From positions 51,005 through 115,004 of the forward strand of contig MHIM01000034.1 of assembly GCA_001817505.1 (NCBI GenBank): a DNA stretch of 64,000 bases. The letters run 5' to 3'. This DNA is from Candidatus Buchananbacteria bacterium RIFCSPLOWO2_01_FULL_39_33. Lineage in GTDB: Bacteria > Patescibacteriota > Patescibacteriia > 2-01-FULL-39-33. Of the stretch, positions 5,022 through 54,722 are shown one piece after another; position 1 is the stretch's first letter, and every line of letters begins with the position of its first letter. A program made the position numbers and the translations under genes. The notes under the pieces were generated by a model. The model did no database searches, was not told where the DNA came from, and was given only the letters and a program-made list of their open reading frames with translations.

Positions 5022-5209
5022 GGTCTCACTCCTGGTTGAAATGTTCTATAATTATTTTATACTTGTTATGATTAATTTTCAAGATTACCATAATTTCTTG
5101 ATAATTTAGGGTTTTTATGATATTATTCTTTAAGCTTTAAGCGATTTTAATATTTTTCTCTTCTTAATGAAATGGAGACCCGTTTTGACTAAAGTTACGG
5201 CGGACATGG

Positions 5210-5280
5210 TCGGGGGTCGTCTAATGGTAGGACACTTGGTTCTGGTCCAAGGTATCGGGGTTCGAATCCCTGCCCCCGAG
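5210..5280 (+). tRNA. tRNA-Gln, anticodon CTG. CCA is not encoded.
   Basis: Acceptor TCGGGGG/CCCCCGA (U1-A72, as in bacterial tRNA-Gln). Anticodon stem-loop CTTGG-TTCTGGT-CCAAG. T-arm CGGGG-TTCGAAT-CCCTG. Discriminator G. Confidence 0.8.
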
Positions 5281-5287
5281 TTAGTAC

Positions 5288-5320
5288 AAAAAAGAGACTG
5301 CTTTCGCAGTCTCTTTTTTG
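5288..5320 (+). terminator. Intrinsic terminator after tRNA-Gln: AAAAAAGAGACTGC-TTTC-GCAGTCTCTTTTTT.
   Basis: 10-bp stem followed by a T-run. Confidence 0.65.
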
Positions 5321-5335
5321 TACTATTTCAGAAGT

Positions 5336-5499
5336 AGGCAGGGATTCAAACGGGACAGAAATGAAACCAGCTTTACCGCGGAAGCGGTAAAGAGCAGTTG
5401 AATGTCGCCAGAGTGCCACTGGCACTCTGGCGCTGTCCCAGGACAGAATAATTTGTCGCATTCTGGCGACAAATTATGCCGTAAATCCCTGCCCCCGAG
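5336..5499 (+). other. Structured non-coding segment. It holds an inverted (5338-5352) and a direct (5484-5499) copy of the tRNA-Gln T-arm/acceptor 3' end, AATCCCTGCCCCCGAG. Enclosed are a long-range stem GGGACAG/CTGTCCC, a GNRA-capped hairpin TACCGC-GGAA-GCGGTA and the palindrome GCCAGAGTGCCACTGGCACTCTGGC.
   Basis: 16-nt direct repeat of the tRNA 3' end 204 bp downstream of the tRNA, plus nested hairpins seen in the sequence. Confidence 0.4.
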
Positions 5500-19081: not shown

Positions 19082-19267
19082 AGTTTTTATAATGTTGCTG
19101 GCCGAATACCCCTGGCTTTTAAGCCAGGGGATGAAGGCCAGTGTGAGAAAAAATATTGTCGGCGGTAGAGACGGGGCATGCCCCGTCTCTACCAGTCATT
19201 CTGAATTTGCCCAGACCTGCCTGCCGGCAGGCAGGTACTGCGGTTTTTAGACCGCAGTCAAATTCAT
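19082..19267 (+). ncRNA. Copy 2 of the 186-nt structured repeat element (see 284-469).
   Basis: About 97% identical to copy 1. It lies between the tandem gpmI paralogs. Confidence 0.55.
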
Positions 19268-19304: not shown

Positions 19305-20897
19305 ATGGCTGTTACTAATACAATTAGACCTAAGCCCATAGTTTTAGTCATTTTAGACGGCTGGGGAGTTGCTCCAGCTTCTGCCAGCAATGCCATTACC
19401 CTAGCCAAGATGCCAACCTATAATGCTTTGGTAAAAAATTATCCAGCCATGACTTTGCAGGCCTCGGGTGAATCCGTCGGTTTATCTTGGGGTGAAATCG
19501 GCAATTCAGAAGTCGGCCACTTAAATATCGGCTCCGGCAAACTTATTTATCAAAATCTGCCTAAAATAGATAAAGACATCACCACTGGGTCGTTTTTTTC
19601 CAATGAGAAATTATTGACTGCCATCAATACCGCCAAAAGAAAAAAGAAATCGTTGCATTTAATGGGTTTATTGACCACTGGCGGCGTTCACGCCTCTTTA
19701 AATCATCTTTACGCCTTACTGGAACTCTGCCATAAAGAAAAATTCAAAAATGTTTTTATCCATGCTTTTTTAGACGGCCGTGATATGCCTTATAACTCCG
19801 GCCTGGATTTGATTGCTAAGGTGCAAGAAAAAATTAAAGAAGTTAAAATCGGACAAATTGCCAGTATTAACGGCCGTTTTTATGCTATGGATCGCGATAA
19901 TCACTGGGAAAGGATAGCTCTGGCTTATCAAGCCATTGCCAATGGCCAGTCGGCTGATAGATTTAATGATCCTCTAAAAGCGGTTTCAGTTTCCTATGAT
20001 AAAAAAATTTATGATGAAGAATTGGCGCCGGTCGTTATCATTAATAAAGATGGTCCACTGGCTACTGTAAGTGAAGGTGATAGCTTAATATTTTTTAATT
20101 TCCGTTCCGACCGAGCCAGACAATTGACCAAGGCCTTTGTTTTGCCGGGCTTTGAAAAATTTGAAAGAAAATATCTGCCAGATCTGTATTTTGTCACTAT
20201 GACCGAATATGAAAAAGATTTGCCGGTGGAAATAGCTTTTCCTCTTGATGTCATCAACCAGCCATTGGCTAAAGTAATCTCTGAAGCCGGCTTAAAACAA
20301 CTGCATATTGCTGAAACCGAAAAGTATGCCCATGTGACTTTCTTTTTAAACGGCGGCCAAGAAGAGACATTTGCCGGTGAGGACCGATTGCTTATTCCCT
20401 CGCCTCGTGTTGCTACTTATGACAAAAAACCGGAGATGTCAGCCAAAGAAATCACCAAAAAATTGATGGAAGTGATAATTAAAAATGAATATGATTTTAT
20501 AGTTGTCAATTATGCTAATAGTGACATGGTGGCCCATACTGGCAATCTTAAGGCCTCCATCAGGGCTTGTGAAGCCATTGACAGTTCCCTTAAACAGTTG
20601 ATAGAAATTATTTTGGCCAAAAACGGCTTAGCTTTTATCACTTCTGATCATGGTAATGCTGAAGAACTGCTGAATCTGCAGTCAGGCAAGATAGACAAGG
20701 AACATAGCACTTATCCAGTTCCGTTTATTATTGTCGGCCGGGACTGGGCAGGCAAAACTGCCGGTCTGCCGGAAGGTCCCAACTCTGATTTGAGTTTAGT
20801 CCAGCCCTCTGGCCTTCTCTCTGATATTGCGCCGACGATACTCAAAATCATGAGTATTGAAAAGCCCCAGGAGATGACTGGCCAGAGCTTGATCTAA
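19305..20897 (+). CDS. gpmI: 2,3-bisphosphoglycerate-independent phosphoglycerate mutase, copy 2 (tandem paralog).
   Basis: VLVILDGWG...GNSEVGHLNIGSGK...TSDHGN. The same motif set as copy 1, but the sequence is divergent. Confidence 0.9.
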   Translation: MAVTNTIRPKPIVLVILDGWGVAPASASNAITLAKMPTYNALVKNYPAMTLQASGESVGLSWGEIGNSEVGHLNIGSGKLIYQNLPKIDKDITTGSFFSNEKLLTAINTAKRKKKSLHLMGLLTTGGVHASLNHLYALLELCHKEKFKNVFIHAFLDGRDMPYNSGLDLIAKVQEKIKEVKIGQIASINGRFYAMDRDNHWERIALAYQAIANGQSADRFNDPLKAVSVSYDKKIYDEELAPVVIINKDGPLATVSEGDSLIFFNFRSDRARQLTKAFVLPGFEKFERKYLPDLYFVTMTEYEKDLPVEIAFPLDVINQPLAKVISEAGLKQLHIAETEKYAHVTFFLNGGQEETFAGEDRLLIPSPRVATYDKKPEMSAKEITKKLMEVIIKNEYDFIVVNYANSDMVAHTGNLKASIRACEAIDSSLKQLIEIILAKNGLAFITSDHGNAEELLNLQSGKIDKEHSTYPVPFIIVGRDWAGKTAGLPEGPNSDLSLVQPSGLLSDIAPTILKIMSIEKPQEMTGQSLI

Positions 20898-20997
20898 ATC
20901 ACCAAAACACTAAACCACAAAAGCACAACTTATTTCTTTGTGTTTTTATTTTTAATCTTGATTTTTACTTCTAAAAATGCTAATTTAACTTGGTCTT

Positions 20998-22488
20998 ATG
21001 CCAGAAAAAACTCTTAAGAAAATAACCGAAGTTTTTCCAGCTGCCCTGGTTTGGCTGACTTTTATAGTTATTATAACCCTATCTTTTGCCCGCCCCCTTT
21101 GGGCGATTTATTTTATTTTGGTTTTCGTGGTTTATTGGATAGTCCGTCTTTTTTATATGATGGTCTGGCTGGTGATTTCTTGGGTGAGATATCTTAGAGA
21201 CATCAAAATTGATTGGTTGGAAAAAATTAAAATTTTGCCTAAAGATTATCGGGAGTATTACCAGGTGATTGAATATCCCACTTGCGGCGAACCGTATGAA
21301 GTGGTAGCCAGATCTTTTGAGGCCTTGCTGAAAACCAATTATCCTAAAGATCAAATGATTGTGGTTTTAGGCGGTGAGGAGAGGAAGGGTGAACAATTTT
21401 TGAAAGTGGCTAAAGAGATTAAGGAAAAATTTGGCAGCCAATTTTTTAAATTGCTTATTACTGTCCATGAATTGCAGCCCGATGAATTGCCCGGCAAAGG
21501 AGCTAATGTCCATTATATGGAATGGGAAATTAAAAAACTGATTGATGAACTTAACCTTCCTTATGAAAAAGTAATTGTCTCTTCTTTTGACATAGAAACC
21601 CTGCCCCACCGCCAGTATTTCTCTTACTTGGCTTATAAATATTTGACTCACCCCAATCCCACCCATGCCAGCTATCAGCCGCTTATTTTATATAACAATA
21701 ATATTTGGGAGTCCAATCCGATAATTCGCGTGGTCGCTTCGGCTACCACCTTCTGGCTTTTAACTGATCTTTCCCGACCGGAAAAATTGTTGACTTTTTC
21801 TTCCCATAGCATGAGCTTCAAAATGCTTTTTGATGTCGGTTTTCATGACAAGACCATTGTGACTGAAGACTCGCGTATTTGTCTACAAGGCCTGGTGCAG
21901 TACGACGGTAAGTATGAAGTTGTGCCGATGTTTGTCACTCTTTCAATGGATACCGTTTACATCGGTAAATTCTGGCAGAGCTTGAAGAACCAATACAAGC
22001 AGATGAGGCGCTGGGCCTGGGGGGTAGAACATTTTCCTTGGATGTGGCAGAATTTTTTTAGCCAAAAGGCCAATAAAAATATTCCTCTTAAGAAAAGAAT
22101 TCAATATCTTTGGAATCAAACCGAGGGCATGTATTCTTGGGCCGTAGCCCCTCTTTTAATTTTAGTCATTGGCCGTTTGCCGCTTTTTTTGGCCTCTGAC
22201 GAAGATAAGGCGACGGCTTTTTTCCAGAACGCTCCTCGTATGTTGGAAAATTTAATGGTTATCGGTATGGTTGGTTTAATTACCAATTCGGTGATGTATA
22301 CGCTGATGTTGCCGAATAGACCTCAAGGTTATTCCTGGCTTAATTATATTATTATGCTGGCGCAATGGGTGGTTTTTCCCGTGACTATGATAATCTTCGG
22401 TTCCATTCCGGCTCTTGACGCTCAAACCCGGCTAATGATCGGCGGCCGCTATAAACTGGGTTTTTGGGTGACGGAAAAGAAAACCTGA
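20998..22488 (+). CDS. Membrane-embedded processive family-2 glycosyltransferase, cellulose/chitin-synthase-like.
   Basis: TED motif (IVTEDSRI) and Q(x)xRW motif (KQMRRWAWG). Multiple TM helices at both the N- and C-termini. Confidence 0.65.
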   Translation: MPEKTLKKITEVFPAALVWLTFIVIITLSFARPLWAIYFILVFVVYWIVRLFYMMVWLVISWVRYLRDIKIDWLEKIKILPKDYREYYQVIEYPTCGEPYEVVARSFEALLKTNYPKDQMIVVLGGEERKGEQFLKVAKEIKEKFGSQFFKLLITVHELQPDELPGKGANVHYMEWEIKKLIDELNLPYEKVIVSSFDIETLPHRQYFSYLAYKYLTHPNPTHASYQPLILYNNNIWESNPIIRVVASATTFWLLTDLSRPEKLLTFSSHSMSFKMLFDVGFHDKTIVTEDSRICLQGLVQYDGKYEVVPMFVTLSMDTVYIGKFWQSLKNQYKQMRRWAWGVEHFPWMWQNFFSQKANKNIPLKKRIQYLWNQTEGMYSWAVAPLLILVIGRLPLFLASDEDKATAFFQNAPRMLENLMVIGMVGLITNSVMYTLMLPNRPQGYSWLNYIIMLAQWVVFPVTMIIFGSIPALDAQTRLMIGGRYKLGFWVTEKKT

Positions 22489-22542
22489 TTTAATTTAAAA
22501 ATTTCTAATTTCTAATTTAAAAAACAATTTTAAAATTTAAAA
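22488..22542. repeat. Left arm (AATTTCTAATTTCTAATTT...) of a conserved AT-rich palindromic intergenic module, directly upstream of the four-helix-bundle gene.
   Basis: The same sequence recurs at 33605-33705 and 52074-52174. Its inverted partner is at 22885-22936. Confidence 0.5.
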
Positions 22543-22881
22543 ATGGTTTATGATTTAGAAAGCAGAACTAAGATATTTAGTAAGCATATGATGAATTTCT
22601 TGTCAGAAATCAGAATAAGAGAAATCAATAGAAATATAATATCTCAATTAATCAAATCAACTACTAGTATCGGGGCTGATTACTGCGAAGCTAATAATGC
22701 TAGTTTTAGGAAAGATTTTAGAAATAAAATATTTATTTGTAAAAAAGAGTCGCAAGAAACTAAATATTGTCTTGAATTATTAGCTGAAATTAATAAAGAA
22801 AAAATTATTCAATTAAGATTATTTTGGCAGGAAGCCCATGAACTACTATTAATATTTAGCAAGATAATTTCCAGTTTATAG
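22543..22881 (+). CDS. Four-helix-bundle protein, 23S rRNA intervening-sequence-protein-like family (112 aa).
   Basis: Length, helical composition and a TSIGADYCEAN motif resembling the NIAEG-type motif of that family. Confidence 0.45.
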   Translation: MVYDLESRTKIFSKHMMNFLSEIRIREINRNIISQLIKSTTSIGADYCEANNASFRKDFRNKIFICKKESQETKYCLELLAEINKEKIIQLRLFWQEAHELLLIFSKIISSL

Positions 22882-22884
22882 TAT

Positions 22885-22936
22885 TTATTAAATTAAATAA
22901 TTGTTTAGAAATTAGAAATTTTTAAATTAGAAATTA
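22885..22936. repeat. Right arm (AAATTAGAAATTTTTAAATTAGAAATT) of the module, ending at the start codon of the GT2 gene.
   Basis: Inverse complement of the left arm. Recurs at the other loci. Confidence 0.5.
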
Positions 22937-23980
22937 ATGGACATGTCTTTACCTAAAGTTACAATTCAAATAGTCACTTGGAACAGCTTGAAATATCTGC
23001 CTTTCACTTTAAAGTCAATTTTTTCCCAAACTTATCGTGATTTCCAGGTTTTAGTCATTGATAACAATTCTCAAGATGGCACGATTGATTTTCTTAGGCA
23101 GGATTACCCCGAAGTCGCTGTTTTTCAAAATAAGAAGAATTTGGGCTTTGCCCGAGCCAATAACCAGGGCATCAGGTTGCTTCATTCTCCTTATATTCTT
23201 TTTTGCAACCCTGACATTATTTTAGAAGCCAATTGGCTGGCGGAAGTTATGCCAAAAGCCGAAGACGAGGCAAACTCCCAAGTGGGCAGTTATGGGGGTA
23301 AATTATTGAAATTAAAGCCAATTGACGGTGAAATCGGCCCTGACAGCCAGACCACTATTATTGATTCTGGCGGCCTGCAAATTTTGAAAAATCGGAAAAT
23401 AGTGGAAATCGGAGCGGGGGAAGACAGTTCTAAATTCAACCGAGATTTAGAGGTCTTTGGCCATTCCGGCGCCCTGGTTTTATACCAAAGAGCAACGCTG
23501 GAAGATTGCCTGGTCAAAACTAAATACCAAAGCCAAGGAGAATATTTTGACGAAGATTTTTTTGCCTATAAAGAAGATATTGATTTGGCTTGGCGCAGCC
23601 GGCTTTTGGGCTGGCAGTCGATTTTTATAAGTCAAGCAGTGGCTTATCATATCCGTTCTTTAGCCGGTTCCCAGAGTCAAGGCCTAGCTGAAATGATTAG
23701 CCATCGGAAAAAACAATCTTCTTTAGCCAGGTATTATTCTTACCGCAACCATTTTTTATTGTTGATTAAAAATGAATTCAGTCAGAATTTTATTAGGGAT
23801 TTTTGGCTAATCAAATGGTTTGAAGCCAAAAAAGCCGGCTATATGCTGATTTTTGAAGGCAAAAACATCAAGGCCTGGCTGGCAGTAATAAGAATGTTGC
23901 CGCTTATGCTAGCCAAAAGAAAGGCAATCTTCAAAAAAGTTCGCATTAAATCATCAGATATAGCGCGCTGGATAAAATAG
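22937..23980 (+). CDS. Family-2 glycosyltransferase, rhamnosyltransferase-like.
   Basis: N-terminal VTIQIVTWNSLKYL...VLVIDNNSQDGT is a GT-A fold signature. Confidence 0.8.
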   Translation: MDMSLPKVTIQIVTWNSLKYLPFTLKSIFSQTYRDFQVLVIDNNSQDGTIDFLRQDYPEVAVFQNKKNLGFARANNQGIRLLHSPYILFCNPDIILEANWLAEVMPKAEDEANSQVGSYGGKLLKLKPIDGEIGPDSQTTIIDSGGLQILKNRKIVEIGAGEDSSKFNRDLEVFGHSGALVLYQRATLEDCLVKTKYQSQGEYFDEDFFAYKEDIDLAWRSRLLGWQSIFISQAVAYHIRSLAGSQSQGLAEMISHRKKQSSLARYYSYRNHFLLLIKNEFSQNFIRDFWLIKWFEAKKAGYMLIFEGKNIKAWLAVIRMLPLMLAKRKAIFKKVRIKSSDIARWIK

Positions 23981-24082
23981 TAACTGGTAACTAGTAATTG
24001 GTAACTGGTAATCGGTAATTGGTGATTTGATGAAATTTTTAAAAACCAGTTACCAGTTGCTAATTACCAGTTACCAAATAAT

Positions 24083-24859
24083 ATGGAAATATCAATCATT
24101 ATCAATAATTACAAAACTAAAGGACTTCTAAAGCAATGCTTAAGGGGCATTTATCTATATCCGCCCAGTGTTGAATATGAAATAATTGTCGTTGACAATA
24201 ATTCCGGTGATGGCTCGGCAGCCATGATTAAAGCCAAATTTCCCCAAGTCAAATTAATTGAGGCCCCTAAAAATCTTGGCCATCATAAAGGCAATAATTT
24301 AGGCCTTAAAAATTCTCAAGGCAAATATGCTTTGATACTCAACACCGATATTGCTCTCTTGGATGACTCCCTGGATAAGATTTACCGTTTTATGGAAGAT
24401 CATAGCCAGGTGGCTCTGGTTGGACCGAAATTAAAAAATCCTGATGGCTCAATACAAATGTCTTGTATGAGGTTTCCTAATAAATTAGTGCCTATTTATC
24501 GCCGCACTTTTTTAGGCAATTTTCCTTTTGCTAAAAAAGAAATAGATTATTACCTGATGAAAGATTTTGACCATTTATCAACTCGGCCGGTGGATTGGAT
24601 ATTGGGGGCTTGCGTAATGGTCAGGCGGTCGGTGATTGATGAAGTGGGACTGATGGATGAGGATTTGTTCCTTTATTTTGGCGACATTGCCTGGTGTCGG
24701 AAGTTTTGGCAGGCGGGCTATAAAGTTTATTATTTTGCGGCTGCCAATATTGTCCATTACCATAAGCGCGAATCAGCGCAAAGCGGCATTTTTTCCTTGG
24801 TTTTCTGGATACATATCATTGATTGGTTGAAATATTTAAAAAAATATTCTCGGCAATGA
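24083..24859 (+). CDS. Family-2 glycosyltransferase.
   Basis: ISIIINNYKT...VVDNNSGDGS is a GT-A signature. Confidence 0.8.
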   Translation: MEISIIINNYKTKGLLKQCLRGIYLYPPSVEYEIIVVDNNSGDGSAAMIKAKFPQVKLIEAPKNLGHHKGNNLGLKNSQGKYALILNTDIALLDDSLDKIYRFMEDHSQVALVGPKLKNPDGSIQMSCMRFPNKLVPIYRRTFLGNFPFAKKEIDYYLMKDFDHLSTRPVDWILGACVMVRRSVIDEVGLMDEDLFLYFGDIAWCRKFWQAGYKVYYFAAANIVHYHKRESAQSGIFSLVFWIHIIDWLKYLKKYSRQ

Positions 24860-26796
24860 AAAAAAACGGCAATTCACATTTTTCATCGAATAATTCAGTC
24901 CGCTTCTTATCCTTAAAGGGGTCTATTTTGTTTATTGCCATTTCTTTAACCAGCTTAATCATTGTTTTGGCGCCTTTAGTTTTTCACGGAGTCAAAGCGG
25001 CTAATTATGCCCTGGTCTCTTATCAGCAAGTTAAAAATCTGGTTAGTGATAGCCAGGCTAAAAATTGGTCAGCTGGTGTCAAAACCGCTGCCAATCTTCA
25101 AGTCAACCTAAAAAAGTTGGATTTAGAAATCAGCCGCCTGGGTTTAATCACCAAATTACCTAAATTAAATCAGGCTTTAAAAATCAGCCGGCAATTTTTG
25201 GCAGTCGCCGATTCTTTGACTGGCAGTTATTTGGAGACCTTTAAAATTTTTGCCAAGGTAGAAGAACTTGGCGCTGTTATTGATCCCTTGGATTTATTGG
25301 AGAATAAGGAAGCCCTGAAGTTAATCAGCGCCAATAACGCTGGTTTGACTTTAGCCCAAAACAATGTTGACCAAGCCAAGAAAAGGTTTGCCGAAATTAA
25401 TACTAATGAATTTTCCGGCCTGTTTTCTAAGTATTTATTTTTAGCCCATGCACAACTCGGCCAAATTTTGACTATCACCGATCTGGCTATTCCGGCTTTA
25501 CCCGAATTAGTTGATTTTTTGGGTTTTAACGGTGCTAAGCATTACCTTTTAATTTTTGAAAATAATATGGAACTGCGTCCGACCGGCGGCTTCATCGGCT
25601 CTTATGGAATTATCACTATTGAGAGTGGCGAGGTCAAGAAAATTTTTACCGATGATGTTTATAACTTGGATAAGTTATCAGCAGGCAAAATGAAAGAATT
25701 GGCTCCGCTGCCTATGCAAAAATATAACAATCAAAAATATTGGTATCTGCGCGATGCCAACTGGTCAGCCAATTGGCCCGATTCAGCCAAGAAAATAACG
25801 GAGTTTTTTCATAAAGAGAGAATTAATGCCAATTTATCCGACCAGCCCTTAGACGGTGTTATCGCTATTACTCCTGATTTTATCGCCAATCTTTTAGCAG
25901 TAATTGGCCCGATTAAGAGTCAGGGCTTAACTTTTTCTGCTAAAAATTTTGCCCTGGACTTGGAAAAATTCGTGGAGTTTGATTTCAGCCAATACGGCGT
26001 GGCTTATAGCGAGCGCAAAGAAATTATCGGTGACTTAGCTGACATTTTAATCGCCAGAATGGAAAATATTCCAACCGGTGATTTGGTTAAATTGTGGCTG
26101 GCTGTCAAAAAGAATATTGATCAGAAGCAGATTTTGGTTTATATGTTTGACGACAAATTGCAAAAATATTTTTCTGACCGCCAGTGGTCGGGTGAAGTGA
26201 AAGCGACTGCTGGCGATTATTTGATGATAGTAGACAGCAATCTGGCTTCGCTTAAGACCGATTCGGTAATGGAGAGGTCAATTAAACAGACGCTTAAAAT
26301 AAATAATGCCGGCGATCTTATTGCCCAGTTGGAGATAACTTATCAGCATAACGGCCAATTTTTAACTGACTTGATAACCCGTTATCGCACTTATGCCAAA
26401 GTTTATGTGCCTGAAGGTTCTTGGTTTGAGCGGGGTTGGATTAAAGCTGGCGATAAGGAGACAGCACTTGATATGTCCAAGGATTTGGAATATGGCAATG
26501 AATTCGGCAAGTCCTATGCGGCTTATTTTCTGGTTATTGAGCCGGGCCATTCTAAGACAATTATTCTGGAATATAAATTGCCGGCCACCTTAAAAAATCA
26601 GTCTGAAAAAGGTCAATATAGTTTAACTGTTCAAAAGCAACCAGGCACCAGTGGACATAAGCTGGAAATTGATTTAAACTTCAGTCGTGACATCGCGGCT
26701 TATAAAAGCGATAATTTTCCCAGTCGTTTTGACGGCCAGTCAATCAGCTGGAAAACGGATTTGAGCGTGGATAGGGAATACATTATTAAATTTTAG
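24856..26796 (+). CDS. DUF4012-domain envelope protein with an N-terminal TM segment. The likely start is ATG 24856, which overlaps the upstream stop as ATGA. The track ORF starts at 24823.
   Basis: Motif ELRPTGGFIGSYG, characteristic of DUF4012. Translational-coupling overlap with the upstream gene. Confidence 0.55.
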   Translation: MKKNGNSHFSSNNSVRFLSLKGSILFIAISLTSLIIVLAPLVFHGVKAANYALVSYQQVKNLVSDSQAKNWSAGVKTAANLQVNLKKLDLEISRLGLITKLPKLNQALKISRQFLAVADSLTGSYLETFKIFAKVEELGAVIDPLDLLENKEALKLISANNAGLTLAQNNVDQAKKRFAEINTNEFSGLFSKYLFLAHAQLGQILTITDLAIPALPELVDFLGFNGAKHYLLIFENNMELRPTGGFIGSYGIITIESGEVKKIFTDDVYNLDKLSAGKMKELAPLPMQKYNNQKYWYLRDANWSANWPDSAKKITEFFHKERINANLSDQPLDGVIAITPDFIANLLAVIGPIKSQGLTFSAKNFALDLEKFVEFDFSQYGVAYSERKEIIGDLADILIARMENIPTGDLVKLWLAVKKNIDQKQILVYMFDDKLQKYFSDRQWSGEVKATAGDYLMIVDSNLASLKTDSVMERSIKQTLKINNAGDLIAQLEITYQHNGQFLTDLITRYRTYAKVYVPEGSWFERGWIKAGDKETALDMSKDLEYGNEFGKSYAAYFLVIEPGHSKTIILEYKLPATLKNQSEKGQYSLTVQKQPGTSGHKLEIDLNFSRDIAAYKSDNFPSRFDGQSISWKTDLSVDREYIIKF

Positions 26797-26928
26797 AATT
26801 TTCAATTTTCAATTTCAAAAACAATTAATTAATTTAAAAATTTAAAATTATTTGAACCCGCCTGCCATGCCTACGGCAGACAAGCCGGCCGGCAGGAATT
26901 AAAATTAGAAATTGAAAATTATTTATTT
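26797..26928. repeat. Variant of the same palindromic module (AATTTTCAATTTTCAATTT...AAATTAGAAATTGAAAATT) with a GC-rich CCTGCC...GGCAGG insertion in its centre. Directly upstream of mreB paralog 1.
   Basis: Seen in the sequence. Confidence 0.45.
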
Positions 26929-35922: not shown

Positions 35923-36194
35923 TTTTTTTCTCCTTGTTTGTTTGGTTGATGTTGGTTTATTTTAGGTACAAATCGCCACTTTGGCTAACTTATATAAGTA
36001 TATCATATAACTTATAACTTGTCAATGATTTTTTCGTATTTAATTTAAATTAAGCCAAAATAAATTCTTTGAATATTATTGCGTTTTAAGGTATTATTAA
36101 ATAACAACTTTTTTAAATTAATCGGCAATCTTCAATCGGCAATCTTAAATCGTCGCCCCCTTGCTTATTATTATAAATACTATAAAATACTCCC

Positions 36195-37421
36195 ATGAGA
36201 CAATCAAAACTCTTCACTAAAACCCAAAAAAATCCACCCCAAGACGCTTTAAGCGCCTCCCATAAATATTTAACCCAAGGCGGGTTTATTGATATGCTAA
36301 TGGCCGGTGTTTATACTTATTTGCCTTTGGGCTATCGGGTGCTGAATAAAATTGCCGATATTATCCGAGCGGAAATGAATTCAGCCGGCGGTCAAGAGAT
36401 GCTGATGCCGACTTTGCAGCCCAAAAATATCTGGGAAGAAACCGGCCGCTGGGAAACTCTAAAAGAAGTGATGTATCAATTCCAAGACCGTTCTGGCAAG
36501 GAGACGGGTCTGGGCGCTACCCATGAGGAAGTGATTTATGACCTGATTAGGCGCAATGTCAGTTCTTACAAGGATTTGCCGCTTTCTCTTTATCAAATTC
36601 AGAATAAATTCCGAAACGAACTACGCGCCAAAGGCGGACTGATGCGGGGCCGAGAGTTTATGATGAAAGATTTATACAGTTTTCATTTGAGCCAGGAAGA
36701 TTTGGATGGTTATTATAACCAGATGATTGAGGCCTATAAAAAAGTTTATCAACGTTGCGGCTTAGAGGTTAAGGTGGTGGAGGCCTCGGGCGGCATTTTT
36801 ACCAAGAAATACTCTCACGAGTTTCAAGTGATAGCCGAAGCCGGCGAAGATAACATCATTTATTGTCCTAAGTGCGATTTTGGCCAGAATTCAGAAATTG
36901 CCAAATTAAAAGCCGGCGATGCTTGCCCCCAAGACGGCGAGAGTTTAAAAGCGGGCAAAAGCATTGAGGTGGGTAATATTTTCCAATTTGGCGATAAGTA
37001 TGCCAAAGATATGAATGGCTATGCCACCACTAAAGACGGTCAGAAGCAGCCGATACTAATGGCCAGTTATGGTATCGGCATTAGCCGTTTGGCGGCGGCT
37101 CTAGTAGAAGTTCATCATGATGAGAAGGGCATTATTTGGCCTAAAAGCGTGGCGCCGTTTGCGGCGCATTTGATTTCTTTGAATAAAAACGAAACGGCTG
37201 ACGAGGTTTATGAAATATTAATTAAGAAAGGTGCCGATGTTTTATATGACGACCGTGATATCTCGGCTGGTGAAAAATTTGCTGATGCCGATTTAATCGG
37301 CCTGCCTTACCGCTTAGTGGTCAGCTCAAAATCCGGCGATAAGATTGAGGTTAAGAAGAGAAGTAGCGATAAGAGCGAGTTGGTGGGTTTAAATGAAGTA
37401 TTAAAATTATTAAGTGAATAA
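36195..37421 (+). CDS. proS: Prolyl-tRNA synthetase, short form lacking the editing insertion.
   Basis: Class II aaRS motifs (motif 2 around FRNELRAKGGLMRGREFMMKD) and a C-terminal anticodon-binding domain. 408 aa. Confidence 0.8.
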   Translation: MRQSKLFTKTQKNPPQDALSASHKYLTQGGFIDMLMAGVYTYLPLGYRVLNKIADIIRAEMNSAGGQEMLMPTLQPKNIWEETGRWETLKEVMYQFQDRSGKETGLGATHEEVIYDLIRRNVSSYKDLPLSLYQIQNKFRNELRAKGGLMRGREFMMKDLYSFHLSQEDLDGYYNQMIEAYKKVYQRCGLEVKVVEASGGIFTKKYSHEFQVIAEAGEDNIIYCPKCDFGQNSEIAKLKAGDACPQDGESLKAGKSIEVGNIFQFGDKYAKDMNGYATTKDGQKQPILMASYGIGISRLAAALVEVHHDEKGIIWPKSVAPFAAHLISLNKNETADEVYEILIKKGADVLYDDRDISAGEKFADADLIGLPYRLVVSSKSGDKIEVKKRSSDKSELVGLNEVLKLLSE

Positions 37422-37520
37422 AATTTTGTAATTTTGAATTATGAATTTTGAATCAATTTTGAAATTCAAATTTTAAAATTAAAAATTCAATCGAAATTCA
37501 AAATTAAAAATTATAATATC

Positions 37521-38558
37521 ATGTTCAAAAAGTTTTTTGGCCAGTTCAATAAAGGCCTGGGCATTGATCTGGGCACCACCAAGACCATCGTCTATCAGCA
37601 GGATAGGGGGATTGTGGTCAGCGAATCATCAGTGGTGGCGGTCAATATCAGAACCGACCAGATTTTAGCGGTCGGCGATGAAGCCATGAAGATGGTGGGC
37701 AAGACCCCGCCGCATATCGTTGCCACCATTCCGTTGGATAATGGCATTATTTCTGATTTTGAAATAACCGAAAAAATGCTCAAATATTTTATGGACCGTG
37801 TGGCTGCCGGCCGAATTGCCCTAGCAGTTAAGCCCAAGGTGGTAGTGGGCATACCGCTGGATATTACAGAAGTTGAAAAAAAAGCGGTTGAAGATGCTGT
37901 CTTGTCAGCCGGTGCCAGCCAGGTATTTTTAGTGGAAAACATTATGGCGGCGGCCATTGGCGCCAGGATTCCCATTCAAGACCCTTCGGGCAATATGATT
38001 GTCAATTTAGGCGGCGGCCTGACAGAAATCGCTGTTATTTCGCTTGATGGCATCGTTAACTGGAAATCAAGCCGCGTTGCCGGCTTGACTTTGGACAAGG
38101 ATATTATCAGATTCGCCAGAGATGAATTCAATCTGGTTTTGGGTGAAATAGTGGCTGAAGATATCAAGAAAAAAATCGGCTCGGCCCTGGAATTAACTGA
38201 ACCTTTGACGATGCAGATGCGCGGCCGGGATATCATCTCCGGCTTGCCGAAAGAGTTTGATGTCAATGATTCCCAGATCCGCGTAGCTATCTTTAAATCC
38301 ATCCAGCATATTTTAGATACGATTAAAGCCACTTTAGAAACCACTCCGCCGGAATTGGTGGCTGATATTTATCAAAAAGGTATAATTTTAACCGGCGGTC
38401 TGGCTCTCTTGAAAAATTTTGACAAATTTATCGCTCAGGGAATTGAGATTCCCGTTCACGTGGCTGATGATCCCCAGACCTGCACTATCAGGGGTCTGGG
38501 TGTTACCATTGACGACGAACATCTGCTTAAAGACATTATTATTCCCTCATCGCAGTAA
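37521..38558 (+). CDS. mreB: Rod shape-determining protein MreB, paralog 2.
   Basis: GIDLGTTKT...ESSVVAV... actin fold. Followed by mreC/mreD-like genes. Confidence 0.9.
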   Translation: MFKKFFGQFNKGLGIDLGTTKTIVYQQDRGIVVSESSVVAVNIRTDQILAVGDEAMKMVGKTPPHIVATIPLDNGIISDFEITEKMLKYFMDRVAAGRIALAVKPKVVVGIPLDITEVEKKAVEDAVLSAGASQVFLVENIMAAAIGARIPIQDPSGNMIVNLGGGLTEIAVISLDGIVNWKSSRVAGLTLDKDIIRFARDEFNLVLGEIVAEDIKKKIGSALELTEPLTMQMRGRDIISGLPKEFDVNDSQIRVAIFKSIQHILDTIKATLETTPPELVADIYQKGIILTGGLALLKNFDKFIAQGIEIPVHVADDPQTCTIRGLGVTIDDEHLLKDIIIPSSQ

Positions 38559-38743
38559 ATGAATATTGGCTATTAGATATTAAATATTTAAATTAAATAA
38601 ATCTTAAATATCTGATATCGAAATCTTAAACAAATCCTAATAACTAAATTCCAAAAATTTTAGAATTTATAATTTATAATTTATTTCGGGTTTGAAATTT
38701 CGGATTTATAATTTATATTATTGTTTTCATATTTTTAAATTAG

Positions 38744-39538
38744 ATGGATAATTTTTTCAAATTAGCGTTGTTAGGTTTAATGATTATTTTTTTAATAATC
38801 GCGCTCCATTATATTAATTGGCTTAAGCCGGTTGAAAATGCCTTAATCAAGGTCTTAGGTCCAGGACAGGAAAAGATTTATTCTTTGGTTTTAGATATTA
38901 AAGATTTTCGAACCCGCTGGCTGATTAAAAGGGATTGGCTTCAAGAAAATGAGGAATTGAGAAAAAAATTTGAGGAATTACGCATTGATCAGTCCAGTCT
39001 TAATAGTTTAAAAAGCGAAAATGATCTTTTAAAACAGGAACTAAACTTTACCCAAGAACGGGAAATTAAGACCGTTACGGCCAAAATAATTACCGGTGTT
39101 TCCGATTCTTTATCTAAGTCGGTGATAATAAATAAAGGTTTTAATGACCAAGTAGAAGATGGTTTGGCGGTGGTAGCCGGCCCGGGAGTGATGGTTGGCA
39201 AGATTTATGATGTTTATGCCGACCATAGCAAGGTTTTGCTTTTAACCGATAACCAAAGCCGGGTGGCGGCCACTATTCAGAATTTAAATAAAACCACTGG
39301 TTTGGTAGAAGGCCAATTCGGCCTAAGTTTTGCCATGACCAATATTCCCCAAGACCAGGAAGTTAAAAACGGCGACTTAATAGTTACTTCCGGTTTGGAG
39401 GGAAAAATACCCAAGGACCTTTTGATTGCCCAAGTTGAAAGCGTCAATGAAGTGGAAAGCGAGATTTTTAAAACCGCGCTTTTAACTCCGATCATCCCTT
39501 TTGATAATTTAAGCTACGTTTTAGTCATCTTGAGATGA
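38744..39538 (+). CDS. mreC: Rod shape-determining protein MreC.
   Basis: N-terminal TM, coiled-coil segment, C-terminal beta-rich domain. Position immediately after mreB. Confidence 0.6.
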   Translation: MDNFFKLALLGLMIIFLIIALHYINWLKPVENALIKVLGPGQEKIYSLVLDIKDFRTRWLIKRDWLQENEELRKKFEELRIDQSSLNSLKSENDLLKQELNFTQEREIKTVTAKIITGVSDSLSKSVIINKGFNDQVEDGLAVVAGPGVMVGKIYDVYADHSKVLLLTDNQSRVAATIQNLNKTTGLVEGQFGLSFAMTNIPQDQEVKNGDLIVTSGLEGKIPKDLLIAQVESVNEVESEIFKTALLTPIIPFDNLSYVLVILR

Positions 39539-47867: not shown

Positions 47868-48014
47868 ATTTTGAATCAAGAATTAAAAATTCCTGCCTGC
47901 CGACAGGCAGGTTGAATCAATTTTGAAATCAGTAATTATAAATTAGAAATTTATTAAAATTTATTAATTTCACCCCATCTTTTTGGAGGATGAGGTGAGG
48001 AAGGAGAAAAAAAT

Positions 48015-52073: not shown

Positions 52074-52174
52074 ATTTAATTTAAGAATTTCTAATTTCTA
52101 ATTTCTAAACAATTTTAAAATTTAAAAATTAATTAATTGTTTAGAAATTGAAAATTATTAAATTAGAAATTGTC
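52074..52174. repeat. Complete copy of the same module between dnaJ and the methyltransferase gene.
   Basis: AATTTCTAATTTCTAATTTCTAAACAATT...AATTGTTTAGAAATTGAAAATTATTAAATTAGAAATT. Confidence 0.5.
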
Positions 52175-53969: not shown

Positions 53970-54539
53970 ATGAAATATGGAAACGTAACTCTTGGAAAAA
54001 TTGAAGCAGTGTGGAATAAACTCGGTGGAGAAGATGGTGTTAATCAATTTCTTCGGGGTGAATTGACTGTCAAAGGAGCTGAATTACTAAAAAGGGTCAC
54101 GACCATGGCGGTCAGCGGCACGAAGAGGTTCGTCGCCAATGAGCATCGCAAGGAGACCAATGTCGGCTTGACCGGGAGCAACTTTGAGAAGTTGTTTCTT
54201 GAAAAAGTCGAGGAGAACGTCGGTGATGCTATCATCGCCATAGATCGCCTAGTGAGGGCGTCTTTGAATGCCTCGATCAGGGCCGAGCTGGGCAGTCGAG
54301 CCGAAATCAAGTTGGCGCACTTCTTTGAAGTGCTTAAAGCGCAGTCGGGAGGCGAAGCAGGCGTTTTGTTGGTCAACGGATATGCCAACATTGCATATAT
54401 TCGTGGAGCCGATAAAAAAGTCTGGGCCGTGGATGCTTACTGGGGCTCTGACTGCGGCTTCTGGCGTGTGGATGCCCGCTCGGTTGGGGGTCCGAGCGGG
54501 TGGTGCGCTGGCCGCCGGGTTCTCTCTCGCGATTCTTGA
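53970..54539 (+). CDS. Hypothetical 189-aa protein, paralog of 28389-29000, with a C-terminal variable region. Putative DGR target.
   Basis: Shared core LLKRVTTMAVSG...LLVNGYANIAYI. 3' 111 nt aligns to the TR-like repeat. Conserved 5' leader and 3' flank shared with the paralog. Confidence 0.6.
   Translation: MKYGNVTLGKIEAVWNKLGGEDGVNQFLRGELTVKGAELLKRVTTMAVSGTKRFVANEHRKETNVGLTGSNFEKLFLEKVEENVGDAIIAIDRLVRASLNASIRAELGSRAEIKLAHFFEVLKAQSGGEAGVLLVNGYANIAYIRGADKKVWAVDAYWGSDCGFWRVDARSVGGPSGWCAGRRVLSRDS
54420..54530 (+). repeat. Variable repeat VR2 (111 bp) at the 3' end of the 53970 gene.
   Basis: 30 mismatches to the TR-like repeat, 20 of them at template A positions. Confidence 0.5.
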
Positions 54540-54722
54540 TTTTTTGTGACTTTGTCATTTTGAGATTTAGTCACTCTGAATCTATAAATCTTTGGCTCTC
54601 TGACACTTTGAAAGAAGTGGAGGAGGGCCTTTTTTGTTTTGACAGATTATTGTTTATATGTTAATTTTTTGAGATGAGTAGAACTTTTACAAAAAGAGAA
54701 CAGACAAAAGGAAAACCATTTC

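Follow-up and report, generated by a model that had tools for sequence, protein, structure and literature searches.

An A/T-rich inverted-repeat module recurs at four loci between protein genes of Candidatus Buchananbacteria bacterium RIFCSPLOWO2_01_FULL_39_33, in the 64,000-nt stretch of contig MHIM01000034.1 that we analysed (hereafter, the window), and at one of these loci the two arms of the module enclose a 112-aa gene of the S23p family (23S rRNA-intervening-sequence protein, PF05635). The module is likely to be the stem of a selfish hairpin element resembling the intervening sequence (IVS) of 23S rRNA, inserted between the genes of operons and accompanied by derivatives without the open reading frame (ORF). 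To our knowledge, neither the S23p/PF05635 proteins nor the 23S rRNA IVS, both known for some thirty years, have been given a function or an origin that is generally accepted.

Anatomy of the element

The first-pass annotation of the window had described an A/T-rich inverted repeat, and the same palindrome is indeed present at four loci, with all five of the stretches listed there at the positions given. The repeat is composed of tandem 7-nt units, AATTTCT in most copies and AATTTTC in the copy at 26797. The left arm reads TTTAATTTAA(A/G)AATTTCTAATTTCTAATTT at 22489, 33602 and 52077, while the right arm, TTAGAAATTAGAAATTTTTAAATTAGAAATTAAT, is identical over 34 nt at 22905-22938 and 33667-33700 and occurs as a variant at 52141-52172. 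Copies are 73-89% identical to one another over 74-101 nt, and their GC fraction is 0.09-0.12. Allowing at most one mismatch, the 12-mer AATTTCTAATTT has 27 copies against 3.6 +/- 2.0 expected, a number reached in 0 of 100 shuffles.

The placement of the module from stop codon to ATG, also claimed earlier, is borne out. Left arms begin within the upstream stop codon or immediately behind it (TGA 22486-88, TAA 33602-04, TAA 52071-73 and TAG 26794-96), and right arms end 0-8 nt before an ATG (22937, 33706, 52175 and 26929, respectively). The flanking genes encode a glycosyltransferase or are frr/rseP, dnaJ and mreB, not rRNA; the window contains no rRNA gene, and the location that defines a 23S or 16S rRNA IVS is thus absent. 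The components of the element are as follows, with ORF-less copies called solo modules and z denoting the z-score of the fold.

22489..22542, + strand: left arm of the ORF-carrying element; AATTTCT heptads, then the inner core AAACAATT; starts right after the TGA of the upstream glycosyltransferase gene; alignable to the left arms found in solo copies and in relatives
22543..22881, + strand: 112-aa PF05635 ORF (S23p, 'four helix bundle protein'), assigned by Pfam match, homologues and PDB 2rld; at the loop position of the ORF-less copies
22882..22936, + strand: right arm of the ORF-carrying element; core AATTGTTT, then AGAAATT heptads; ends at the ATG (22937) of the downstream family 2 glycosyltransferase (GT2) gene
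33600..33705, no strand assigned: solo module in the frr/rseP spacer; -28.6 kcal/mol, z -6.6; the stem takes in the frr stop codon; 1 and 5 nt in two relatives
52074..52174, no strand assigned: solo module in the dnaJ/methyltransferase spacer; z -3.5; its inner 21 nt (AAACAATTTTAAAATTTAAAA) equal the inner end of the left arm at 22522-22542
26797..26928, no strand assigned: solo module of the AATTTTC variant in the DUF4012/mreB spacer; z -3.6; its loop contains a GC-rich hairpin; 9 and 5 nt in two relatives

All three solo modules fold into long stems, and the GC-rich insert reported for the copy before the first mreB gene corresponds to a GC-rich hairpin at about 26860-26897. In the minimum-free-energy fold of 22480-22945 (466 nt), the split arms pair across the 339-nt gene, with the arm at 22489-22542 pairing with 22905-22936. 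ORF-less and ORF-bearing copies can be aligned along both arms, and the ORF occupies the position of the solo loop. As the palindrome is nearly identical on both strands, the orientation of an ORF-less copy relative to the downstream start is undefinable.

The PF05635 gene and its decay

The split arms had been said to bracket a four-helix-bundle gene, and this is confirmed by the identity of ORF 22543-22881, which matches PF05635 with 38.7 bits (Pfam cut-off 33.8) and the solved relative PDB 2rld with an E value of 5.8e-17. The protein has 1375 homologues, mostly from Patescibacteria, with 'four helix bundle protein' as one source name. The family alignment is strongly conserved, with 31 invariant columns, and the window protein departs from near-invariant residues (W76C, N46D and S55F), substitutions that may represent early decay. 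The gene is far more A/T-rich than its neighbours.

The frr/rseP module, ORF-less in the window, encloses a PF05635 gene in the metagenome-assembled genome (MAG) CAYIBK01 and in an independent contig from Hainich groundwater. This gene is 73% identical to that of the window and sits exactly at the loop position of the window's ORF-less copy. An in-frame TAG replaces its conserved residue Q71 in both (L034 3973-3975, L046 919-921); because the same TAG is found in two independent assemblies, the gene is a real pseudogene and not the product of a sequencing error. In a more distant Parcubacteria genome, a 54%-identical gene lies between AATTTCT arms in yet another context.

Insertion polymorphism at orthologous junctions

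Syntenic regions of relatives were retrieved through ribosome recycling factor (Frr). Two of them, L126 (Frr 78% identical) and L127 (73%), have the same gene order as the window over seven consecutive junctions, at which the spacers are as follows (GT, glycosyltransferase).

GT/GT2: window 448 nt, L126 13 nt, L127 7 nt
GT2/GT2: window 102 nt, L126 1 nt, L127 1 nt
DUF4012/mreB: window 132 nt, L126 9 nt, L127 5 nt
frr/rseP: window 101 nt, L126 1 nt, L127 5 nt
rseP/114-aa gene: window 164 nt, L126 12 nt, L127 71 nt
hisS/mreB2: window 99 nt, L126 0 nt, L127 42 nt
mreB2/mreC: window 185 nt, L126 30 nt, L127 32 nt

The coding sequences of L126 and L127 can be aligned with those of the window as far as the stop codon, and again from the start codon onwards. 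Since the orthologous junctions are nearly empty (0-13 nt in L126 at six of the seven), comparison of the genomes indicates that the modules are insertions, in line with the earlier suggestion that they are the ends of a miniature mobile element. The ancestral spacers would have been only a few bases long, which accounts for modules that abut start codons and run from stop to start. Furthermore, the short spacers of the relatives, together with the conservation of coding sequence to both edges, argue that the flanking genes do not depend on the module for a promoter or terminator.

The element is present or absent at orthologous sites, as are miniature inverted-repeat transposable elements (MITEs), and the frr/rseP junction occurs in many states. 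Beyond the relatives with 1 nt and 5 nt, another relative has a 34-nt stretch beginning with TTTAAAAATTTCTAA, which is probably a remnant of the module. Other relatives have, at this junction, a non-palindromic repeat of 65 nt, a 135-nt module built from a different type of unit, an AATTTCT module in which a GC hairpin is nested, or AATTTCT arms that enclose the PF05635 gene. At DUF4012/mreB, relative L129 has an AATTTCT-type module without the GC insert, and the MAG CAYIBK01 (L015) has the same module as the window at the orthologous dnaJ/methyltransferase junction.

The contigs CAYIBK0100000xx (L015, L022, L025, L026, L034 and L043) are labelled 'uncultured Gammaproteobacteria', yet they have gene order and intergenic modules in common with the Buchananbacteria window, and the label looks wrong.

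Association of gene and arms across lineages

A metagenome scan yielded 80 loci with PF05635 homologues of 49-72% identity. At nearly all of them, tandem heptads and AAACAATT lie upstream of the ORF, while AATTGTTT and inverse heptads lie downstream and end just before the next start codon. Complementarity between the upstream and downstream flanks exceeds the 95th percentile of shuffles in 77 of the 80 loci (96%). Flanks taken from different loci also pair well (median 17.5, compared with 22.5 for flanks of the same locus) because loci share motif types, and we therefore added shuffles and a self-rank test, in which 11 of the 80 loci have their own partner arm as the top match, against 1 expected.

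The arms match each other within a locus even as the unit changes between loci (AATTTCT, AATTTTC, AAATTTC, AATTTAC, AAAATTT and others). Specifically, the period of the exact tandem units is 7 on the left in 47 of 53 flanks and on the right in 42 of 48, and in 18 of 36 loci the left and right units are exact reverse complements of each other, against a mean of 3.2 and a maximum of 9 under permutation. Heptad runs are concentrated beside the gene: 56 lie no more than 200 nt from one of the 80 ORFs, against 21 in the rest of the sequence (160 kb). Upstream genes point the same way as the ORF in 71 of 73 loci and downstream genes do so in 65 of 72; the neighbours of the ORFs belong to 56-61 distinct families. 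From these properties it follows that gene and arms constitute an old unit now present in many places. The proposal that the gene had been inserted in, or mobilised with, the palindrome thus gains support from the relative with the gene inside the frr/rseP module and from the joint occurrence of gene and arms in some 60 contexts.

The 22-mer TTTAARAATTTCTAATTTCTAA extends this distribution. It is found in 35 stretches of species-representative genomes, mostly from phyla of the Candidate Phyla Radiation (CPR), namely CPR2, Nealson-, Davies-, Doudna-, Vogel-, Azam-, Magasanik-, Roizman-, Peregrini- and Saccharibacteria; outside the CPR it occurs in one Pacearchaeota MAG and in a few MAGs with other labels. 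It usually adjoins gene ends, and its distribution may reflect horizontal spread or repeated arrival at a favoured unit.

Further spacer-filling hairpins and other repeats

All spacers of the window were listed and then folded. At least four more A/T-rich spacer hairpins share the build of the element and use other tandem units.

23981..24082, no strand assigned: hairpin with the 8-nt unit TAACTGGT between two GT2 genes; 39 pairs, -45.1 kcal/mol, z -9.1; 1 nt in both relatives
34879..35042, no strand assigned: AT-rich hairpin between rseP and the 114-aa gene; 31-pair helix, z -6.6; 12 nt in L126
37422..37520, no strand assigned: AT-rich hairpin separating hisS from the second mreB, with AATTTTG / CAAAATT units; z -3.3; 0 nt in L126
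17331..17394, no strand assigned: AT-rich hairpin (AAAGTTAT / ATAACTTT units) in the 229-nt spacer upstream of the first iPGM gene; 22 pairs; membership less certain

Several of these hairpins are probably diverged members or sister types of the element.

A second repeat family comprises short G+C-rich hairpins of the form CCTGCCTGCC-N4-GGCAGGCAGG, located at about 420-440, 19220-19240, 26860-26897, 27975-27995, 28250-28275 and 47893-47912 in the window and at 3718-3742 in L034. In the window and in relatives alike, several of them lie inside AT-rich modules, as though they had inserted there. G+C-rich hairpins (e.g. GTAGAGACGGGGCATGCCCCGTCTCTAC) are also dense in a 159-nt repeat at 311-469 and 19109-19267, whose copies are 97% identical and have no Rfam match; one copy is found upstream of the gene at 651, the other upstream of the second iPGM gene. 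Assemblies L003-L005 have different genes upstream of the point of this repeat, which may therefore mark a break due to recombination or to assembly. A 204-nt repeat (60-76% identical) at 28881-29084, 29345-29548 and 54420-54623 spans the 3' ends of paralogous genes (203 and 189 aa, function unknown) together with the sequence downstream of them; the regions that precede these genes look similar as well. Elsewhere, an 88-aa ORF at 5195-5461 (-) overlaps tRNA-Gln at 5210-5280 (+) on the opposite strand and is probably not a gene.

Proposed life cycle and points against it

We propose that the stem of the element is formed by terminal inverted repeats made of tandem 7-nt units, that the full form at 22489-22936 carries the S23p ORF in its loop, and that the modules at 33600-33705, 52074-52174 and 26797-26928 derive from the same element by loss of the ORF. 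The element would insert into spacers of a few bases between consecutive operon genes and be transcribed together with its neighbours; co-transcription fits the co-orientation of the ORFs and the absence, one weak match apart, of promoter-like sites. In the transcript, the arms would form an AU-rich duplex of 25-45 bp, a potential substrate for an RNase III-type enzyme. The 23S rRNA of Coxiella, Leptospira and Salmonella has an IVS with S23p, and by analogy RNase III could cut the duplex proposed here. The host would tolerate the insertion, since cleavage would merely separate cistrons, and the ORF would decay and be lost, leaving solo hairpins that are eventually deleted.

Several observations weigh against this proposal. 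Comparison of filled with empty junctions reveals no clean target-site duplication, the genomes being too diverged (Frr 73-78%) for a base-by-base comparison of spacers, and the distribution among relatives appears to fit repeated gain as well as a single gain followed by precise losses. Repeat units differ by junction, and some hairpins may have grown in place instead of being inserted. Stem mismatches show no strand bias, with 138 G.U-compatible and 136 A.C mismatches in the 80 stems, and folding energies of the + and - strands are similar; because of this balance, the sequences carry no sign of selected pairing in the sense RNA, and palindromy may be a property of the element at its making that decays later. 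In addition, no transposase, reverse transcriptase (RT) or other mobility gene was called within 10 kb on either side. No RNase III gene is present among the window ORFs examined, and a scan of viral contigs for PF05635 relatives of this clade found none and thus no sign of a phage vector.

Alternative explanations

The first-pass annotation had also offered two regulatory readings, neither of which is supported. A combined terminator, promoter or insulator cassette sits poorly with relatives that have the same gene pairs without the module. Moreover, a scan for G+C-rich stems followed by a T-run found no terminator-like site in the modules, while canonical terminators elsewhere in the window indicate that the organism uses them. 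A sigma-70 scan (-35/-10, 16-18-nt spacing, + strand, at least 9/12) found no site in 33605-33705 or 22882-22936, with 52074-52174 outside the scan; the sole promoter-like + strand match in a module, among 60 sites listed for 20500-39000, is a weak one (9/12) that starts at 26877 in the GC insert. A binding site for a global regulator is likewise at odds with the gene pairs that lack the module, and with a repeat unit that changes by locus while the arms stay complementary, a pattern that points to pairing or palindromic origin and not to a fixed protein-binding sequence. It is unlikely, more broadly, that the modules are cis-regulatory RNA hairpins recruited by the host to set the relative expression of neighbouring genes, whether as processing site, stabiliser, attenuator or Shine-Dalgarno-independent translation start. 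Such a role would suit right arms that end 0-8 nt before starts without a Shine-Dalgarno sequence (other window genes have GGAGG), the retention of the dnaJ/methyltransferase module in two genomes, the co-orientation of the ORFs with their neighbours, and stems long enough for RNase III. It is harder to reconcile with short spacers at the same gene pairs in relatives, with the different states of one junction among close relatives, with the near-absence of terminator- and promoter-like sites, and with the lack of a G.U over A.C excess on the sense strand. Individual copies could possibly have been recruited in this way, but host regulation cannot be the general explanation because the junctions are empty in relatives.

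It seems to us quite improbable that nothing moves and that the palindromes form where they stand, through replication slippage of 7-nt units together with template switching in AT-rich spacers, with PF05635 genes as hot spots or with arms copied along by recombination. Growth in place would allow each junction its own repeat unit and copy number, would leave neither a target-site duplication nor a strand signature in stem mismatches, and has a parallel in the heptad copy number that varies among Coxiella strains (PMC4990558). Against it, 74-101-nt copies that are 73-89% identical occupy four unrelated junctions within 64 kb, two of them sharing an identical 34-nt core; the same arms, including the AAACAATT/AATTGTTT core, surround PF05635 genes in about 60 contexts; TTTAARAATTTCTAATTTCTAA recurs in its 35 stretches, most from CPR phyla; and ancestral spacers of 0-13 nt hold no material to expand. 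Slippage and template switching may nevertheless contribute to the turnover of units. We give very little weight to the idea that the heptad arrays are binding sites of the PF05635 protein, or of another DNA- or RNA-binding protein, serving autoregulation or nucleoid organisation, with the inversion reflecting the symmetry of an oligomer. The enrichment of heptad runs beside PF05635 ORFs (roughly 7-fold or more), the description of S23p as a homopentamer of four-helix bundles (PMC4990558) and the reported homology of the family to Avd (PMC10053308) would accord with binding, whereas the unit varies by locus despite strong conservation of the protein, the two arms change together and stay complementary, and solo modules occur at junctions far from any PF05635 gene.

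Other identities were considered as well. A MITE with a transposase-coding autonomous form is not supported, since the sole ORF-bearing form encodes PF05635 and no transposase was called in the 10 kb on either side. For a diversity-generating retroelement, the context in which Avd occurs, no RT was called over the same distance and the neighbours of the 80 homologues differ; template and variable repeats were not looked for. Integron attC sites and repetitive extragenic palindromes or bacterial interspersed mosaic elements (REP/BIME) do not correspond to the arms found here, which are halves of one palindrome split by an ORF and are A/T-rich arrays, not short G+C-rich palindromes. Rfam gave no match to a module, either at the gathering threshold over the whole window, where only two tRNAs were found, or at E values up to 1 in 22400-23000.

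Comparison with known systems

The element shares with bacterial MITEs a size of about 100-130 nt, terminal inverted repeats, a hairpin fold, a multicopy and intergenic distribution, and presence or absence at orthologous sites. Unlike MITEs, its long form encodes a four-helix-bundle protein and no transposase, no target-site duplication was found in the junctions compared, and its arms are 7-nt tandem arrays that drift in concert. In the early mRNA of phage T7, long intergenic stems lie in a polycistronic transcript, and RNase III cleavage separates the cistrons; PMC4990558 cites Dunn and Studier 1973 on these sites. The window elements are similar in that long intergenic stems stand between cistrons of what would be a polycistronic transcript; the T7 sites differ from them as single-copy functional signals with internal loops, neither repeated nor invasive and without an ORF.

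PF05635 (and cd16375) is reported to be homologous to Avd, the accessory protein of diversity-generating retroelements (PMC10053308). The likeness is one of protein family: unlike Avd, the gene described here has no RT called within 10 kb, and its neighbours differ by locus.

The closest counterpart is the 23S rRNA IVS of the type known from Coxiella burnetii, Leptospira, Brucella and Xanthomonas. In C. burnetii, terminal inverted repeats form a stem of 28 bp with an S23p ORF in its loop, and three tandem heptameric repeats, strain-variable in copy number, precede this ORF; RNase III cuts within the stem, and the IVS is called selfish and its ORF decaying (PMC4990558). Some IVSs lack an ORF altogether. 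The window element likewise combines a PF05635-family ORF in the loop of a long inverted-repeat stem with tandem heptads next to the ORF start, shows ORF decay and ORF-less forms, and lies in a spacer that is probably transcribed, and the two can be described alike as selfish. Unlike the IVS, it stands between protein genes of operons and not in helix 25 or 45 of 23S rRNA, it has several copies per 64 kb, its stems are almost pure A/T, and its excision by RNase III is a proposal made by analogy. A few rRNA insertions of CPR bacteria contain S23p-type ORFs (PMC11270868). Within the literature that we could search, we found no description of hairpin-flanked PF05635 genes outside rRNA, of ORF-less derivatives or of CPR intergenic palindromes, the closest reports being PMC4990558 and PMC11270868.

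The combination of ORF, inverted-repeat stem and heptads outside rRNA, in many CPR lineages and at junctions where close relatives have no module, is relevant to the still unexplained origin of the IVS and to what PF05635 proteins do. It would also mean that recent insertions, and not regulatory sequence, make up much of the intergenic DNA in these streamlined genomes, with consequences for promoter and terminator annotation, operon prediction and the assembly of CPR genomes. A bolder and doubtful extension is that heptad-repeat hairpins with an S23p/Avd-like ORF form one widespread mobile class suited to any transcribed spacer, CPR operon junctions here and rRNA helices elsewhere, with PF05635 as its own mobility or maintenance factor, e.g. 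a hairpin-binding cofactor of a reverse transcriptase or nuclease acting in trans, and with 23S rRNA as the best-tolerated landing site. If the window modules are the IVS-like elements that we take them to be, the IVS looks like one instance of a general hairpin element and not like a peculiarity of rRNA.

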